From a plasmid, in NCBI RefSeq assembly GCF_053078305.1, contig NZ_CP166875.1: a stretch of DNA of 64,000 nucleotides. One strand, written 5' to 3'. Below, one piece after another: positions 1,838 through 7,623 of the stretch. Each line of letters starts with the position of its first letter. Position 1 is the stretch's first letter. Both the position numbers and the translations under genes were made by a program. Below the pieces are notes generated by a model. That model searched no databases and was not told the DNA's origin. It saw only the letters and a list, made by a program, of their open reading frames with translations.

Positions 1838-2411
1838 TACGTCGTCCAGTCAGGCGTGCCATACCGCCCGGTATGTTGTCGCCCGGGTTCTGCGTGGACT
1901 GTTCTGGTGTCTGAAATACACCGTCATTCTGCCACTGGCCACAATGGCCCTGATGGCGTTATTTGTTTTATGGAAGGACAACACCACACCAGGGAAATTA
2001 CTGGTTCAGGAAATTGACTTCATAAGACAAACAGCCCCTGCCGGGCAGTTTCCTGTAAGAGAATGTTTGCCTTCTCTGCCAGATCTTCCAGGAGCAGAAG
2101 AGAAAATCTGCCGTTACCGTGCTGCTGATGCTGCAGATTATGTCAGGGAGACTGACCGGTCACTGATGCAACTGGTCACCGCATTATGGGCAACACTGGC
2201 ACTGATGTATGTCTCGCTGGCAGCAATCACCGGGAAATATCTGGTGCGACCCGGAAAAATGAAATGTATCCGGGTGGTAACCGCAGATGAACATCTGAAG
2301 GAAGTTTATACGGAAGATGCTTCCCTGCCGGGAAAAATCAGGAAATGCCATGCTTATTTCCCTGATAACAGAACAAACAGAAACAACGGAGATAAAAATG
2401 AACATGCGTAA
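1827..2411 (+). CDS. traP: TraP inner-membrane protein
   Basis: size and position after traB; start overlaps traB stop; TM helix. Confidence 0.65.
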   Translation: MANNTSSSQACHTARYVVARVLRGLFWCLKYTVILPLATMALMALFVLWKDNTTPGKLLVQEIDFIRQTAPAGQFPVRECLPSLPDLPGAEEKICRYRAADAADYVRETDRSLMQLVTALWATLALMYVSLAAITGKYLVRPGKMKCIRVVTADEHLKEVYTEDASLPGKIRKCHAYFPDNRTNRNNGDKNEHA

Positions 2412-2592
2412 TATTCATGTTATTACGGCCCTCTCTGTACCGGATAAACGCATATCAGATGATTTTATGCATGCTGTTCTCAGTAACTGCACCACAGGAG
2501 TACTTCCTGCACCGGAGAAATTCGGTTCTGAGTCATTGCCGGACAATTTTACTATGACTGCTGTCGGTGTGATGAAGAATTCAGAAATATAA
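2398..2592 (+). CDS. trbD: TrbD small protein
   Basis: 64 aa ORF starting MNMRNIHV, position between traP and trbG. Confidence 0.6.
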   Translation: MNMRNIHVITALSVPDKRISDDFMHAVLSNCTTGVLPAPEKFGSESLPDNFTMTAVGVMKNSEI

Positions 2593-2603
2593 GGAACCCT
2601 TCG

Positions 2604-2855
2604 ATGAATAAGCTGGTTTCTGATGGCAGCGTCAAAAAAATAAATTATCCGGTGCTGTATGAGTCCGGAATAACACCTCCGTTATGTGAAGTCAGTGCAC
2701 CAGAACCTGATGCGGGTGGGAAACGCATTGTGGCATATGTTTATAAATCATCACGGAATACGGTTTTTGAAAATCCTGACATTGTAAAAACCTGTACGGT
2801 CAGGGATTTGAAGAATGATTTTGTGAACTGCGATGAGAAAGGTGAGGGACAATGA
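2604..2855 (+). CDS. trbG: TrbG
   Basis: 83 aa, same length as F TrbG; position upstream of traV. Confidence 0.6.
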   Translation: MNKLVSDGSVKKINYPVLYESGITPPLCEVSAPEPDAGGKRIVAYVYKSSRNTVFENPDIVKTCTVRDLKNDFVNCDEKGEGQ

Positions 2856-3367
2856 AACAGATTTCTTTATTTATTCCGCTGCTGGGGACGTTATTACTTT
2901 CCGGCTGTGCCGGAACAAACTCCGACTTTGAGTGTGATGCCACCACATCCGATACCTGTATGACGATGGAGCAGGCCAATGAGAAGGCCAAAAAACTGGA
3001 GCAGTCCTCAGAAGCAAAGCCGGTTGCGGCATCACTGCAGCGCCTGGCTGAAGGGAACTTCCGGACAATGCCGGTGCAGACCGTCACCGCGACCTCTCCG
3101 TCCGGCAGCAGACCTGCGGTGACGGCACTTCCGGAGCAGAAACTGCTGGCACCACGTCCGCTGTTTACCGCTGCCCGGGAAGTGAAAACGGTTGTTCCGG
3201 TCAGTTCAGTTGCACCGGTAATACCTCCCCGTCCGCTAAGAACGGGTGAGCAGACGGCAGCATTATGGATAGCGCCTTATATTGATAATCAGGATGTTTA
3301 TCATCAGCCATCCAGTGTGTTTTTTGTTATTAAACCGTCTGCGTGGGGAAAACCACGTATTAATTAA
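2852..3367 (+). CDS. traV: TraV outer-membrane lipoprotein of T4SS core
   Basis: 171 aa, lipobox LLLSGCAG, F gene order. Confidence 0.85.
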   Translation: MKQISLFIPLLGTLLLSGCAGTNSDFECDATTSDTCMTMEQANEKAKKLEQSSEAKPVAASLQRLAEGNFRTMPVQTVTATSPSGSRPAVTALPEQKLLAPRPLFTAAREVKTVVPVSSVAPVIPPRPLRTGEQTAALWIAPYIDNQDVYHQPSSVFFVIKPSAWGKPRIN

Positions 3368-3501
3368 CAGGCCCTGAAGTTGTATATCAGCCGGCAATGC
3401 CGGCGGGCTTTCTGTATTCAAAATCTGCCTGTAAAACGAGTGCCCTGTGCGTGAAAAGGGATGGGCGGTAGCGTGTCAGAACATGTCGGGAGGAATATTC
3501 C

Positions 3502-3723
3502 GTGAGTGATGAAGCCGATGAAGCATATTCAGTAACAGAACAACTGACCATGACAGGAATAAACCGGATACGCCAGAAAATAAATGTTCATGGTATTCCT
3601 GTTTATCTCTGTGAAGCATGCGGAAATCCTATTCCGGAAGCCCGGCGGAAAATATTTCCCGGTGTGACGTTGTGCGTTGAATGTCAGGCGTATCAGGAAA
3701 GGCAGAGGAAACACTATGCATAA
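3502..3723 (+). CDS. traR: TraR, DksA-like C4 zinc-finger protein
   Basis: 73 aa, CEACGNPIP...CVEC zinc-finger motif. Confidence 0.85.
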   Translation: MSDEADEAYSVTEQLTMTGINRIRQKINVHGIPVYLCEACGNPIPEARRKIFPGVTLCVECQAYQERQRKHYA

Positions 3724-4189
3724 ATCAGAAAATGAAAAAATAGATTCTATTCTGGATGAACATCAACAGATATATCGCAGACATAACCGAATAGATAACA
3801 TCCTGGCGTTTTTTGCGTGTATTGCATGGATTCCCTGTATTATTGCTGCGTTCGGCGTTGATGGTATATATCTGAAAATCCTGTTTGCGGTCCTTGCCTG
3901 CTGTGGTGCGGTATGCTTTTTTATTTTCTTCTTCACTCTCCTGCCGGAATCACTCATGGTCCTCAGCCGTCAGAGCCTGCTTCAGCTTATGCGTCTGACT
4001 GAAGACGTACCGGATGCGAGACAGGAACTGCTTAACCGTCTGCTGTCCGGTAAAAAACTGACTGGTCGGGATGAAAAGGATATCCGGCGTCTCTGGCAGG
4101 AGAAAGTGGATGCAATGCAGGAGTCTGCCACCCGTCAGCGTGAACAGGATACCATCCGGAAGTTTACTGAAGGGAATAAATCCGAATGA
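3716..4189 (+). CDS. hypothetical membrane protein (2 TM helices plus charged C-terminal helical domain)
   Basis: ORF start overlaps traR stop; hydrophobic segments; no recognised family. Confidence 0.45.
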   Translation: MHKSENEKIDSILDEHQQIYRRHNRIDNILAFFACIAWIPCIIAAFGVDGIYLKILFAVLACCGAVCFFIFFFTLLPESLMVLSRQSLLQLMRLTEDVPDARQELLNRLLSGKKLTGRDEKDIRRLWQEKVDAMQESATRQREQDTIRKFTEGNKSE

Positions 4190-4268
4190 AAATCTGCTGT
4201 GTTTTATAACCTCATAAGTTAACTGAAGGAGTATTCAGTGATTAATATTTCACTGGAGGTAATAAAGA

Positions 4269-4487
4269 ATGCATACCTTTATTTTTCTTGTGCTGATGAA
4301 AAATGTTGGCGGTGGCGGAAGCTGGAATGTTACCCCCATGCCAAATACGGACGTATGCGTGCAGGTTCTTCGGACAATCGAAGCACATGGAGGCAGGGGA
4401 TTTGGAAATACAGGGGAGTGTATTGAAGTTAAAACTAATGAACCTTTGAATAACGTGATGGAAACACTGAATGGTGGTGGGCTATGA
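4269..4487 (+). CDS. hypothetical small Gly-rich protein
   Basis: 72 aa ORF in traR-traC islet; weak. Confidence 0.25.
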   Translation: MHTFIFLVLMKNVGGGGSWNVTPMPNTDVCVQVLRTIEAHGGRGFGNTGECIEVKTNEPLNNVMETLNGGGL

Positions 4488-4514
4488 GTGCTTACTGCTT
4501 CGAAGGAAAATGAA

Positions 4515-4862
4515 ATGAAGTCGATATATTTAAAATATTTTCTGTCTTTTGTATTTGTTGGTGTTATGGCTATGATTGTATGTATTCCTTTTTACATCAT
4601 TTACCTTGCGCAACAACCTGCAACACCAGAACAACTGACAGAGATTTTACAGGAAACTCCCTGTGCAGCAGAAGCATTTCAGGAGACACTTAATTATCAG
4701 TCTGAACCTTTAACATTTGGTAAGGCAAATAAAATCGCATCAGAATGCAGAAAAAGAAATGAAATGGAAGAGGCGCGACGGGTAAGAGAAAACGAGCTCA
4801 ATAAGATACGCGAAAAACAACTTCAGGCATTAAGTGATGCTGATTCAGCAAAGGAACGTTAA
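4515..4862 (+). CDS. hypothetical single-pass membrane protein with coiled-coil C-terminus
   Basis: ORF with TM helix (FLSFVFVGVMAMIVCIPFYIIYL) and charged C-terminal region. Confidence 0.4.
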   Translation: MKSIYLKYFLSFVFVGVMAMIVCIPFYIIYLAQQPATPEQLTEILQETPCAAEAFQETLNYQSEPLTFGKANKIASECRKRNEMEEARRVRENELNKIREKQLQALSDADSAKER

Positions 4863-4992
4863 TTGTAATCCTGGTTTCCTGTTAAAAGCCTCCATCTCTT
4901 ATTTGTGCTGTGGTTTCAGAAATGGCACTGCGTGATATATCCACGCCACAGACTGATATTTTCCTTTTTTAAACGTACTAAGGAATACTCAT

Positions 4993-7623
4993 ATGAGTAA
5001 TAACCCACTTGAGGTCGTCACTCAGGCGGTCAATTCACTGCTGACCGCACTTAAATTACCGGATGAATCTGCTCAGGCTAATCAGATCCTCGGTGAGATG
5101 AACTTCCCGCAGTTCAGCCGTCTGCTGCCATACCGTGATTACAACCAGGAATCCGGTCTGTTCATGAATGACTCCACAATGGGCTTTATGCTGGAAGCCA
5201 TTCCCATCAATGGTGCGAATGAGACCATTGTGGAGGCTCTCGACCATATGCTGCGCACCAAACTGCCGCGCGGTATTCCGCTGTGTATCCATCTGATGTC
5301 CAGCCAGCTGGTTGGCGAGCGGATTGAGTACGGGCTGCGTGAGTTCTCCTGGTCAGGTGAACAGGCAGAACGGTTTAACGCCATTACCCGGGCCTATTAC
5401 ATGAAAGCCGCAGAAACACTGTTTCCGCTGCCGGAAGGGTTGAACCTGCCTCTGACCCTGCGCCATTACCGGGTGTTTATCTCGTACTGTTCTCCCTCGA
5501 AGAAAAAAAGCCGGGCCGACATTCTGGAAATGGAAAACCTGGTGAAAATCATCCGGGCGTCTCTGCAGGGAGCATATATCACCACGCAGACGGTGGATGC
5601 ACAGGCTTTCATCGATATTGTCGGGGAGATGATTAACCATAACCCGGACTCCCTGTACCCGAAAAGACGTCAGCTGGACCCGTATTCTGATTTGAATTAT
5701 CAGTGCGTGGAGGACAGTTTTGACCTGAAGGTCCGGGCAGATTACCTGACGCTGGGACTGCGTGAGAACGGCAGGAACAGCACTGCCCGCATCCTGAATT
5801 TCCATCTGGCCCGTAACCCGGAAATCGCCTTCCTGTGGAACATGGCCGACAACTACAGCAACCTGCTGAACCCGGAACTGTCCATCTCCTGCCCGTTCAT
5901 TCTGACGCTGACCCTGGTGGTGGAAGACCAGGTGAAAACCCACAGCGAAGCCAACCTGAAGTACATGGACCTGGAGAAAAAGTCGAAGACCTCCTATGCC
6001 AAATGGTTTCCGTCCGTGGAGAAAGAAGCGAAGGAGTGGGGGGAACTGCGTCAGCGGCTGGGCTCCGGTCAGTCTTCTGTCGTGTCCTACTTCCTCAACA
6101 TCACAGCATTCTGCAAGGACAATAATGAAACGGCACTGGAAGTGGAGCAGGATATCCTGAACAGCTTCCGTAAAAACGGTTTTGAACTGATTTCACCGCG
6201 CTTTAACCACATGCGCAATTTCCTGACCTGCCTGCCCTTTATGGCCGGGAAAGGGTTGTTTAAACAACTGAAAGAGGCCGGAGTGGTTCAGCGCGCAGAG
6301 AGCTTTAATGTGGCCAACCTGATGCCGTTAGTGGCGGATAACCCCCTGACGCCGGCAGGTCTGCTGGCACCCACCTACCGTAACCAGCTGGCGTTTATCG
6401 ATATTTTCTTCCGGGGGATGAATAACACCAACTACAACATGGCGGTCTGTGGCACTTCCGGGGCCGGTAAAACCGGGCTGATACAGCCACTTATCCGCAG
6501 TGTGCTGGACTCCGGGGGTTTTGCTGTGGTGTTCGACATGGGGGATGGCTACAAGTCCCTGTGTGAAAACATGGGGGGCGTATATCTGGACGGTGAAACC
6601 CTGCGCTTTAACCCGTTTGCGAACATCACCGATATTGACCAGTCAGCGGAGCGTGTCCGTGACCAGCTGTCGGTGATGGCCAGCCCCAACGGTAACCTGG
6701 ATGAAGTGCATGAAGGTCTGCTGCTGCAGGCGGTCAGGGCCTCCTGGCTTACCAGACAGAACCGGGCGCGTATTGATGACGTGGTGGATTTCCTGAAAAA
6801 CGCCCGGGATAACGACCAGTATGCCGAGTCCCCGACCATCCGCAGCCGTCTGGATGAAATGATAGTGCTGCTGGACCAGTACACAGCCAACGGTACTTAC
6901 GGCCAGTATTTTAACTCTGATGAACCGTCCCTGCGGGATGACGCAAAAATGGTGGTGCTGGAGCTGGGTGGACTGGAAGACCGTCCGTCCCTGCTGGTTG
7001 CGGTGATGTTCAGCCTTATCATTTACATCGAGAACCGGATGTACCGCACGCCGCGTAACCTCAAGAAACTGAACGTCATTGATGAGGGGTGGCGTCTGCT
7101 GGACTTCAAAAATCACAAGGTCGGTGAGTTTATTGAGAAAGGTTACCGTACCGCCCGCCGTCATACTGGTGCCTATATCACCATCACACAGAACATCGTC
7201 GACTTTGACTCTGACAAGGCCTCCAGTGCGGCCCGTGCGGCATGGGGTAACTCCTCCTACAAAATTATCCTCAAACAGAGTGCGAAGGAGTTCGCGAAAT
7301 ATAACCAGCTGTATCCGGACCAGTTCCTGCCACTGCAGCGCGACATGATTGGTAAGTTTGGTGCGGCCAAAGACCAGTGGTTCAGTTCCTTCCTGCTGCA
7401 GGTGGAAAACCACTCCTCCTGGCACCGTCTGTTTGTGGACCCGCTAAGCCGTGCCATGTACAGCTCTGACGGCCCGGATTTTGAGTTTGTGCAGCAGAAA
7501 CGTAAAGAGGGGCTGAGTATTCATGAGGCGGTGTGGCAGCTGGCGTGGAAGAAGTCAGGGCCGGAGATGGCTTCGCTGGAAGCATGGCTGGAAGAACATG
7601 AGAAATACAGGAGTGTTGCATGA
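4993..7623 (+). CDS. traC: TraC, VirB4-family T4SS ATPase
   Basis: 876 aa; Walker A GTSGAGKTG; F TraC is 875 aa. Confidence 0.95.
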   Translation: MSNNPLEVVTQAVNSLLTALKLPDESAQANQILGEMNFPQFSRLLPYRDYNQESGLFMNDSTMGFMLEAIPINGANETIVEALDHMLRTKLPRGIPLCIHLMSSQLVGERIEYGLREFSWSGEQAERFNAITRAYYMKAAETLFPLPEGLNLPLTLRHYRVFISYCSPSKKKSRADILEMENLVKIIRASLQGAYITTQTVDAQAFIDIVGEMINHNPDSLYPKRRQLDPYSDLNYQCVEDSFDLKVRADYLTLGLRENGRNSTARILNFHLARNPEIAFLWNMADNYSNLLNPELSISCPFILTLTLVVEDQVKTHSEANLKYMDLEKKSKTSYAKWFPSVEKEAKEWGELRQRLGSGQSSVVSYFLNITAFCKDNNETALEVEQDILNSFRKNGFELISPRFNHMRNFLTCLPFMAGKGLFKQLKEAGVVQRAESFNVANLMPLVADNPLTPAGLLAPTYRNQLAFIDIFFRGMNNTNYNMAVCGTSGAGKTGLIQPLIRSVLDSGGFAVVFDMGDGYKSLCENMGGVYLDGETLRFNPFANITDIDQSAERVRDQLSVMASPNGNLDEVHEGLLLQAVRASWLTRQNRARIDDVVDFLKNARDNDQYAESPTIRSRLDEMIVLLDQYTANGTYGQYFNSDEPSLRDDAKMVVLELGGLEDRPSLLVAVMFSLIIYIENRMYRTPRNLKKLNVIDEGWRLLDFKNHKVGEFIEKGYRTARRHTGAYITITQNIVDFDSDKASSAARAAWGNSSYKIILKQSAKEFAKYNQLYPDQFLPLQRDMIGKFGAAKDQWFSSFLLQVENHSSWHRLFVDPLSRAMYSSDGPDFEFVQQKRKEGLSIHEAVWQLAWKKSGPEMASLEAWLEEHEKYRSVA

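Follow-up and report, generated by a model that had tools for sequence, protein, structure and literature searches.

Conserved accessory genes orfG, orfH and orfI in a polymorphic slot between traR and traC of F-like plasmids

In Escherichia coli, Klebsiella and Salmonella, resistance and virulence genes travel mainly on F-like plasmids. What is modelled about the transfer machinery of these plasmids derives largely from classical F, which is transfer-proficient. In F, small and often membrane-anchored Trb proteins (TrbI, TrbD, TrbG, TrbE) are encoded interspersed among the essential tra genes and are dispensable under laboratory conditions. The traR product is a DksA/TraR C4 zinc-finger protein binding RNA polymerase, and in F it reprograms the polymerase and turns on the envelope-stress regulon of sigma-E. 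Sigma-E activation by TraR, like the finding that the protein is non-essential, goes back to work that PMC8744291 cites and PMC5102898 includes in its reference list. For R100, the ORF following traR was termed YfhA, with no counterpart in F (PMC2762410). The comparative "Five shades of F" paper limited its scoring to named tra/trb genes, and a preprint of the Christie laboratory reported the uncharacterised orfX1-3 of pED208 inside the OMCC gene cluster (bioRxiv 10.1101/2023.12.05.570194).

The window analysed here, i.e., the whole stretch of 64,000 nucleotides taken from plasmid contig NZ_CP166875.1 (assembly GCF_053078305.1), starts within an F-type (MPF_F, MOBF12) tra operon. The following features were found:

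407-1837: traB, F-type tra operon at the window start
Between traB and traV: traP, then trbD/trbG
2852-3367: traV, upstream of traR
3502-3723, + strand: traR, 73 aa (NCBIfam NF010268, E=4e-54; Pfam PF01258, E=1.7e-13; PGAP annotation in NZ_CP045714)
3716-4189, + strand: ORF1, here "OrfG", 157 aa (ORF list, AF2 model, family alignments, traR synteny)
4190-4268, + strand: spacer orfG-orfH, 79 nt, with the GGAGG ribosome-binding site of ORF2
4269-4487, + strand: ORF2, OrfH, 72 aa (UniProt O32536)
4515-4862, + strand: ORF3, OrfI, 115 aa, with an alternative GTG start at 4488
4863-4992, + strand: spacer before traC, 130 nt
4993-7623, + strand: traC, VirB4-type T4SS ATPase, downstream boundary of the variable slot (ORF list, PGAP)
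Downstream of traC, in this order: trbI, traW, traU

The three small same-strand ORFs between traR and traC had been proposed in an initial annotation made from the sequence alone, and PGAP placed them at identical coordinates. Positions 3400-5100 were 100% identical to the E. coli plasmid pFHI_NMBU_11_02 (NZ_CP045714, IncFIA/FIC), for which PGAP lists exactly these three CDS, each as "hypothetical protein". The longest open frames begin at 3677 for ORF1 (ATG at 3716) and at 4488 for ORF3 (ATG at 4515). A Shine-Dalgarno-like motif precedes each ATG, namely GAGGAA (3716), GGAGG (4269) and AAGGA (4515). In cactATGcaTAA (also given as ATGCATAA) the start codon of orfG, ATG, overlaps with the stop of traR; the two genes share 8 nt, and orfG is predicted to be translationally coupled to traR. 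In the spacer between orfG and orfH, a GTG at 4238 lies out of frame and has an AAGGAG motif of its own; according to the alignment, E. coli plasmids share this spacer, and Klebsiella shares it from about position 4226. From the spacer before traC, local alignments showed F to share just the last ~20 nt, ACTAAGGAAT..., which are the traC ribosome-binding site. Promoter and terminator scans detected no promoter-like or terminator-like site in 3300-5200, and an Rfam scan of the interval returned no match. An embedded RNA or an internal promoter was therefore dropped as explanation, and co-transcription of orfG, orfH and orfI with the long tra operon is the simplest reading of the sequence.

The three ORFs are already catalogued in R1 and R100 as ORFs of unassigned function and are not tra/trb genes. 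Exact-sequence look-ups and homology searches retrieved only "hypothetical protein" or systematic names, and no homology search identified them as named tra or trb genes. The 72-aa protein falls into the same 90% cluster as UniProt O32536, "OrfH" of R1. Family members of ORF3 are named "YfiC protein" after the R100 nomenclature, and ORF3 corresponds to OrfI by its position in R1. By position, ORF1 is YfiA in the R100 nomenclature, while its paralogue in R100/R1 is named "YfhA" and "Conjugative transfer protein" (O32534). Scanning the three proteins and the R100 paralogue against Pfam, NCBIfam, PHROG and PADLOC gave nothing above threshold. All three stayed below the curated cut-offs of the NCBIfam/Pfam Tra/Trb models, with best E values of 0.01-0.8 to unrelated families, compared to E=4e-54 for TraR scanned alongside. 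No Pfam or NCBIfam match pointed to exclusion proteins of the TraS/TraT type. The best PADLOC hit of ORF1 and of the R100 paralogue was sub-threshold, to a model for Type II REases (E=0.016-0.026), and ORF2 and ORF3 had no match. Fold searches were uninformative and revealed no fold similarity to Tra/Trb families. Full-text literature searches found no functional study of these ORFs; an IncX4 PixR paper was inspected and bears no relation to them. The family libraries and the literature searched thus assign no function to any of the three, in line with the initial annotation.

In order to follow the selection acting on the block, its counterparts were extracted from R100 and six further plasmids (83-95% identity at the nucleotide level), and dN/dS was calculated by the method of Nei and Gojobori. 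All three ORFs remain open in these seven plasmids. Indels between intact copies are in-frame (5 codons in orfI, 1 codon in orfG). Median dN/dS was 0.08 for traC, 0.18 for both traV and traR, 0.37 for orfH, 0.66 for orfI and 0.68 for orfG. Resolving orfG by domain, allele versus allele, gave 0.43 for the N-terminal helix, 1.1-1.2 for the TM hairpin and 0.2-0.36 for the C-terminal domain. Against the Klebsiella homologues dN/dS was 0.19 for orfH and 0.37 for orfI, at near-saturating or saturating dS values of 0.95 and 1.66, respectively; the corresponding dN of orfH (0.18) was lower than that of traV (0.37). Apparently disrupted copies were also encountered in a few plasmids. A 1-nt deletion interrupts orfH in the plasmids L006 and L009, frameshifted orfH variants were found in P0162 and P0164 as well, and orfG of L007 is without the usual ATG. 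That orfG, orfH and orfI are real coding genes is shown jointly by their conservation, by dN/dS values under 1, by the in-frame character of the indels and by the confidence of the structure models. Constraint is clear for orfH and the OrfG C-domain, and only weak for orfI and the OrfG membrane anchor. The GC3 values of orfI (0.27), traR (0.37), orfH (0.40) and orfG (0.46) lie below the 0.68 of traC and traW. This low GC3 of the three genes, 0.27-0.46 versus 0.68 for traC, suggests an accessory-gene origin separate from the core tra genes.

ORF1 had been described as a 157-aa two-TM protein, and two hydrophobic helices were indeed recovered by Kyte-Doolittle windows (>1.6 over residues 25 to 66) as well as by AF2. 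The AF2 model, computed from a 15-sequence family alignment, has a pLDDT of 87.9 (>93 across residues 81-150) and places helices at residues 3-47 (N-terminal helix running into TM1), 51-75 (TM2), 85-97, 99-110 and 117-153. The predicted architecture of OrfG is thus an N-terminal helix followed by a two-TM hairpin (at about residues 29-75) and then by a cytoplasmic three-helix domain. The charge distribution suggests an N-in, C-in topology. Even in members with as little as 22-25% identity the C-domain motif RLLSGKxLTGRDExDI hardly changes, in contrast to the freely varying TM region. Within the motif, L109 and G112 are invariant in both family alignments and L110 in one, and R108, S111, T116, D119 and I123 show at least 90% conservation over the same identity range. 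The N-terminal and TM half occurs as two alleles, each attached to a near-identical C-domain. An exhaustive HMMER search yielded 68 family representatives at 50% clustering; a Pfam scan of 15 members gave no family in common. Relatives with 25-46% identity directly follow traR in four further F-type loci, with an overlap of 14 nt in L013, overlaps of 8 nt in L024 and L026 (L026/27), and a gap of 13 nt in L025. Other relatives were found without traR and outside T4SS operons, one behind a ProQ/FinO-like gene of a colicin Ia plasmid, others beside hicAB and in a chromosomal island. The members share the two TM segments and the motif by which the family is defined; adjacency to traR is not family-wide. 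The OrfG family is plasmid-associated, and often but not always associated with a T4SS.

For ORF2 the expectation of a Gly-rich peptide held with respect to composition (16.7% Gly), but the structure predicted is that of a folded domain (beta-beta-alpha-beta-alpha) and not of a loose peptide. AF2 (pLDDT 78.3) assigned beta(4-13)-beta(18-24)-alpha(27-40)-beta(49-56)-alpha(60-68), a fold that is provisional as it was modelled from a shallow alignment of close relatives. Hydropathy reached a maximal KD19 of 0.91, with no hydrophobic segment of TM strength, and Cys30 and Cys51 are conserved in the alignment. From the model, OrfH is probably a small, folded, soluble alpha/beta protein, which refines the initial annotation. 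In the AF2 model its invariant N-terminus, MH(T/A)FIFLVLM, makes up one of the core strands. This hydrophobic N-terminus had raised the idea of a signal-peptide-bearing or pheromone-like peptide. The hydrophobic run comprises 8 residues and a basic n-region is absent, while the conserved Cys pair would fit export. A secreted OrfH, though still conceivable, was set aside because the model places the N-terminus in a core strand and hydropathy is far below that of a TM or signal segment. The OrfH family comprises about 77 clusters, exclusively from Enterobacteriaceae, and a PLSDB search with the orfH segment gave over 2,300 matching Klebsiella plasmids, with a nucleotide identity of about 74%. 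Entries of a "120-aa OrfH" in one homologue cluster were recognised as a 120-aa OrfI variant.

ORF3 was found to be single-pass by hydropathy, as had been noted before. One N-terminal TM segment (about residues 8-31) is preceded by two lysines and followed by an acidic region, and the C-terminal tail, taken for a coiled coil in the initial annotation, is charged and putatively helical. The conserved core reads ATPEQL..I...PCA.E.F...PL..G.A..IA..C and contains an invariant Cys50/Cys78 pair. We infer a type II orientation, in which the Cys50/Cys78 domain would be periplasmic and carry a disulfide. An unannotated OrfI homologue was detected in Klebsiella pGR-1870 (L004:4582-4839) with 36% identity, E=4e-13 and both Cys residues conserved.

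The slot differs strongly in content between plasmids. In R1 (orfF-orfI) and R100 (yfhA-yfi ORFs) position and order are the same as in the window. The full-length R100 (L003) copies are identical to those of the window by about 94% for the 157-aa, 92% for the 72-aa and 88% for the 115-aa protein. R100 carries a fourth ORF of 137 aa (YfhA), whereas the window represents the three-ORF form. This 137-aa ORF is a truncated allele-2 OrfG fused to a duplicated TraR C-terminus (...QRKHYA), and an OrfG ending in the C-terminus of TraR marks the scar of a tandem duplication of the traR 3' end plus orfG. Classical F has the same flanking genes as the window, but only 159 bp between traR and traC, in agreement with the canonical order traR to traC given in the initial annotation. 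Over about 117 nt directly after its traR stop, F retains sequence homologous with the 5' end of allele-2 orfG, which forms a frameshifted remnant of 34 codons (MHKSVAEHSDLIPDEHEWIFRKQKSLYMRREMAR*). Since the gap of F aligns with the 5' end of orfG as a frameshifted remnant, F lost the block, and its arrangement, taken as canonical in the initial annotation, is a secondary deletion leaving a remnant of ORF1.

The suggestion in the initial annotation that variable small ORFs occur here in some F-like plasmids proved right, with four ORFs in R100, two in a pSLT-like plasmid and six in a Klebsiella pKpQIL-like plasmid. In the pSLT-like plasmid the slot holds an OrfG homologue and an 87-aa ORF. 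In the pKpQIL-like pGR-1870 the six ORFs of the traV-traC slot come without traR and without a member of the OrfG family. The slot contains, besides the unannotated OrfI homologue, a 72-aa OrfH homologue with 72% amino acid identity to that of the window and four other small membrane ORFs, two of which are paralogous TM-plus-Cys proteins. A Klebsiella 136-aa "lipase chaperone" ORF was considered as the OrfG equivalent and rejected, as the family motif is absent. Among metagenomic F-type loci, L024 has OrfG alone and L026 two OrfG paralogues plus a 124-aa four-TM ORF. OrfG relatives with the same architecture and an RLLSGK..TGRD motif were also found in IncX-like pilX operons at 24-29% identity; these encode a VirB-type and not an F-type system and have no TraR. 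There, the relatives are promoter-proximal in the T4SS operon, downstream of an RNA-polymerase-binding regulator, the NusG-like ActX, and preceding VirB1-VirB4. A small ORF between ActX and the OrfG relative looked ribbon-helix-helix-like by eye.

In PLSDB 3,755 records matched a probe spanning the traR-traC junction of F, 2,256 of them in the contiguous short form, while about 1,210 plasmids carry at least 80% of the three-ORF block. Our initial assumption that most F-like plasmids carry the block was overturned by these counts, the short form being the commoner one. Among plasmids of this traR/traC type about a third carry the three genes and about 60% do not, so any benefit must be conditional. 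As F transfers with an orfG remnant only and 2,256 records have the short junction, the genes are dispensable for transfer. Thus, orfG, orfH and orfI are conserved accessory genes, dispensable for transfer and located in a polymorphic slot.

What the proteins contribute was considered in the light of these data. The reading we favour, at about an even chance with its vaguer form included, is that they modulate the burden or assembly of the T4SS in donor cells rather than build the T4SS. The products of orfG, orfH and orfI would then be made only in cells expressing the transfer operon. The sequence-tolerant two-TM hairpin would tether OrfG to the inner membrane, exposing the three-helix domain to the cytoplasm, and OrfG might act with TraR at the membrane-cytoplasm interface. 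OrfH would be a small soluble alpha/beta protein. OrfI, a putative single-pass inner-membrane protein with a probable periplasmic disulfide formed by its Cys pair, would act on the periplasmic side, and the three proteins would tune envelope burden or T4SS assembly. Support for the modulator proposal comes from annotated CDS that match the block in no fewer than 1,200 plasmids, from the ribosome-binding motifs and the lack of promoter-like, terminator-like or Rfam matches in the interval, from purifying selection on the OrfG C-domain, OrfH and OrfI (versus Klebsiella), from the AF2 models, from the overlap of orfG with traR and the position of OrfG relatives after traR and at the head of pilX operons, and from dispensability for transfer. 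Against it, neither homology nor experiment ties any of the three proteins to a function, whole-gene dN/dS of orfG and orfI among E. coli plasmids is high (about 0.66-0.68), with about 1.1-1.2 for the OrfG TM hairpin, the block is absent from about 60% of the plasmids, OrfG relatives occur without traR or T4SS operons, the low GC3 points to a separate origin, the OrfH model comes from a shallow alignment, and the fold searches were uninformative. A possible, though rather doubtful, alternative is that they are minor subunits with a structural or assembly role in the F-type T4SS or pilus, analogous to TrbD, TrbG, TrbI, TrbE, TrbJ and TrbF, which would directly contact the inner-membrane complex or periplasmic assembly factors and conditionally affect pilus dynamics or mating efficiency. 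The genes lie inside the pilus-assembly gene block from traV to traC, and pED208 has its orfX1-3 within the OMCC gene cluster (bioRxiv 10.1101/2023.12.05.570194); OrfG and OrfI are predicted membrane proteins, the Cys pair of OrfI fits a periplasmic, disulfide-dependent F-type component, and the IncX-like OrfG relatives adjoin the VirB1-VirB4 genes. However, F and about 2,256 other plasmids build the same machine without them, similarity to Tra/Trb in sequence or fold was not found, some OrfG relatives lie far from T4SS genes, and a near-neutral OrfG hairpin (dN/dS 1.1-1.2) is unexpected for a helix in a conserved complex.

The wide variation of the slot can be read differently, as the tra operon might serve unrelated cargo just for expression in transfer-competent cells, with roles such as competition with or exclusion of related plasmids, protection against pilus-specific phages or another donor trait, and with the OrfG hairpin alleles as specificity variants. 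As a hot spot of recombination, the slot holds from zero to six different small ORFs, depending on the lineage. Two OrfG N-terminal/TM alleles sit on a near-identical C-domain, tandem OrfG paralogues occur in R100 and L026, the composition is foreign (GC3 0.27-0.46), and OrfG relatives elsewhere adjoin toxin-antitoxin and colicin genes. We nevertheless regard cargo as unlikely: PADLOC and PHROG gave no match, the conserved part of OrfG is its cytoplasmic domain and is not surface-exposed, exclusion is already covered by TraS and TraT of the operon (in R100 by TraT and an ORF in the TraS position), and the tight conserved coupling to traR would be left unexplained. Presence/absence polymorphism with the short form being commoner, dN/dS of 0.66-0.68 for orfG and orfI among E. 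coli variants, the frameshifted orfH copies (L006, L009, P0162, P0164) and the L007 orfG without its usual ATG would all fit decaying remnants with no present function, kept open by recent common ancestry and hitchhiking in an essential operon. Such decay is improbable in view of OrfH and OrfI being kept across the E. coli and Klebsiella lineages at dN/dS of 0.19 and 0.37, an orfH dN (0.18) below that of TraV (0.37), the persistence of the OrfG C-domain motif to 25% overall identity across plasmid types, and the confident AF2 models of OrfG and OrfH. A more specific proposal on OrfG is a long shot, namely that it represents an unrecognised widespread family partnering RNA-polymerase-binding conjugation regulators (TraR, possibly ActX) and gating TraR reprogramming and sigma-E activation. 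In this same long-shot reading the membrane-tethered OrfG would be an anti-sigma-like sequestration switch, lost by classical F, whose anchor would let the gating depend on the state of the envelope or of the assembling T4SS.

New in this study are the remnant in F, the duplication scar in R100, the domain-specific selection, the fold prediction for OrfH, the Klebsiella OrfI homologue and the traR-orfG synteny. We consider the locus a catalogue entry with a testable lead and not a discovery; the most informative lead is the traR-orfG module. OrfH is present in thousands of Klebsiella plasmids under constraint at least equal to that of TraV, and classical F, the main source of the transfer models, happens to be without the block. 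If the modulator proposal holds and the genes tune conjugation cost or envelope stress, or if they gate TraR, differences in transfer rate and fitness between similar resistance plasmids would be partly explained. Compared to the Trb proteins of F, the ORFs of the window have no sequence similarity and are missing from F itself; they are alike in small size, and trbG has a similarly low GC3 (0.37).

The accessory genes are compositional islands inside the tra operon. In the window, GC content fell to 0.38-0.46 over trbD/trbG, traR and orfG/H/I (2200-3000 and 3400-5000), compared with 0.53-0.60 in the core genes traB, traC and traW. Likewise, GC3 was 0.27-0.46 for the small non-essential genes versus 0.61-0.68 for the core genes. 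OrfG-family genes were repeatedly found just downstream of small regulators that bind nucleic acids or RNA polymerase (L014:1894-3272, L018:4179-5492, L022:4343-5477), namely TraR, the NusG-like ActX together with a small ORF that may be RHH-like, and a protein resembling ProQ/FinO. This adjacency may be a coincidence or may reflect a functional link. The following features of the traR-traC slot were identified in other plasmids:

L004:4582-4839 (Klebsiella pGR-1870), unannotated OrfI homologue of 85 codons with a TTG start, 36% identity, E=4e-13
L006:3553-3771 and L009:3556-3771, orfH deletion variants, equivalent to window 4297-4303
L003:4699-5112 (R100), YfhA, an extra 137-aa ORF, OrfG allele ending in the last residues of TraR
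L012:3575-3691 (F plasmid), orfG 5'-end remnant, frameshifted, in the traR-traC "intergenic" region

In pGR-1870 both cysteines of OrfI are kept in the homologue. Two further ORFs in the slot of this plasmid (L004:3230-3520 and 4147-4551) each combine a TM segment with the Cys-containing motif HWxxDCxxLExNI...CxxxIxNV and look like paralogues of one another. The 136-aa ORF of pGR-1870 is annotated as "lipase chaperone", a name for which Pfam gave no supporting match. Another family of small multi-TM proteins fills the slot of other F-type loci; its member in the metagenomic locus L026 (3968-4342) is intact with 124 aa, and the gene of L013 (5507-5803) is apparently split into ORFs of 45 aa and 51 aa.

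Comparing the E. coli and Klebsiella plasmids, 28 of the first 30 nt of orfH were identical (window 4269-4298 versus L004:3544-3573), with approximately 74% identity over the remainder, and the upstream ribosome-binding region was likewise conserved. This conservation may reflect constraint on the core beta-strand, or translation initiation may be constrained at the nucleotide level. In L006 and L009, which both also carry a 120-aa OrfI variant, a 1-nt deletion in a short A-run after codon 10 shifts the orfH frame, and PGAP left the gene unannotated. In these two plasmids, the frame that covers the conserved OrfH body begins instead at an out-of-frame upstream GTG (window 4238), which in the window has its own AAGGAG ribosome-binding motif. 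The affected copies could be pseudogenes or use an alternative start, or the deletion could be a sequencing error in the homopolymer.

Tandem OrfG paralogues were observed in the metagenomic locus (L026:3028-3971) and again in R100, where the C-terminus of YfhA consists of the terminal TraR residues (..QRKHYA), showing that the traR 3' end and orfG were duplicated in tandem. In the classical F plasmid, the traR-traC "intergenic" region is itself what is left of the frameshifted orfG 5' end, a 34-codon ORF with the translation MHKSVAEHSDLIPDEHEWIFRKQKSLYMRREMAR followed by a stop.
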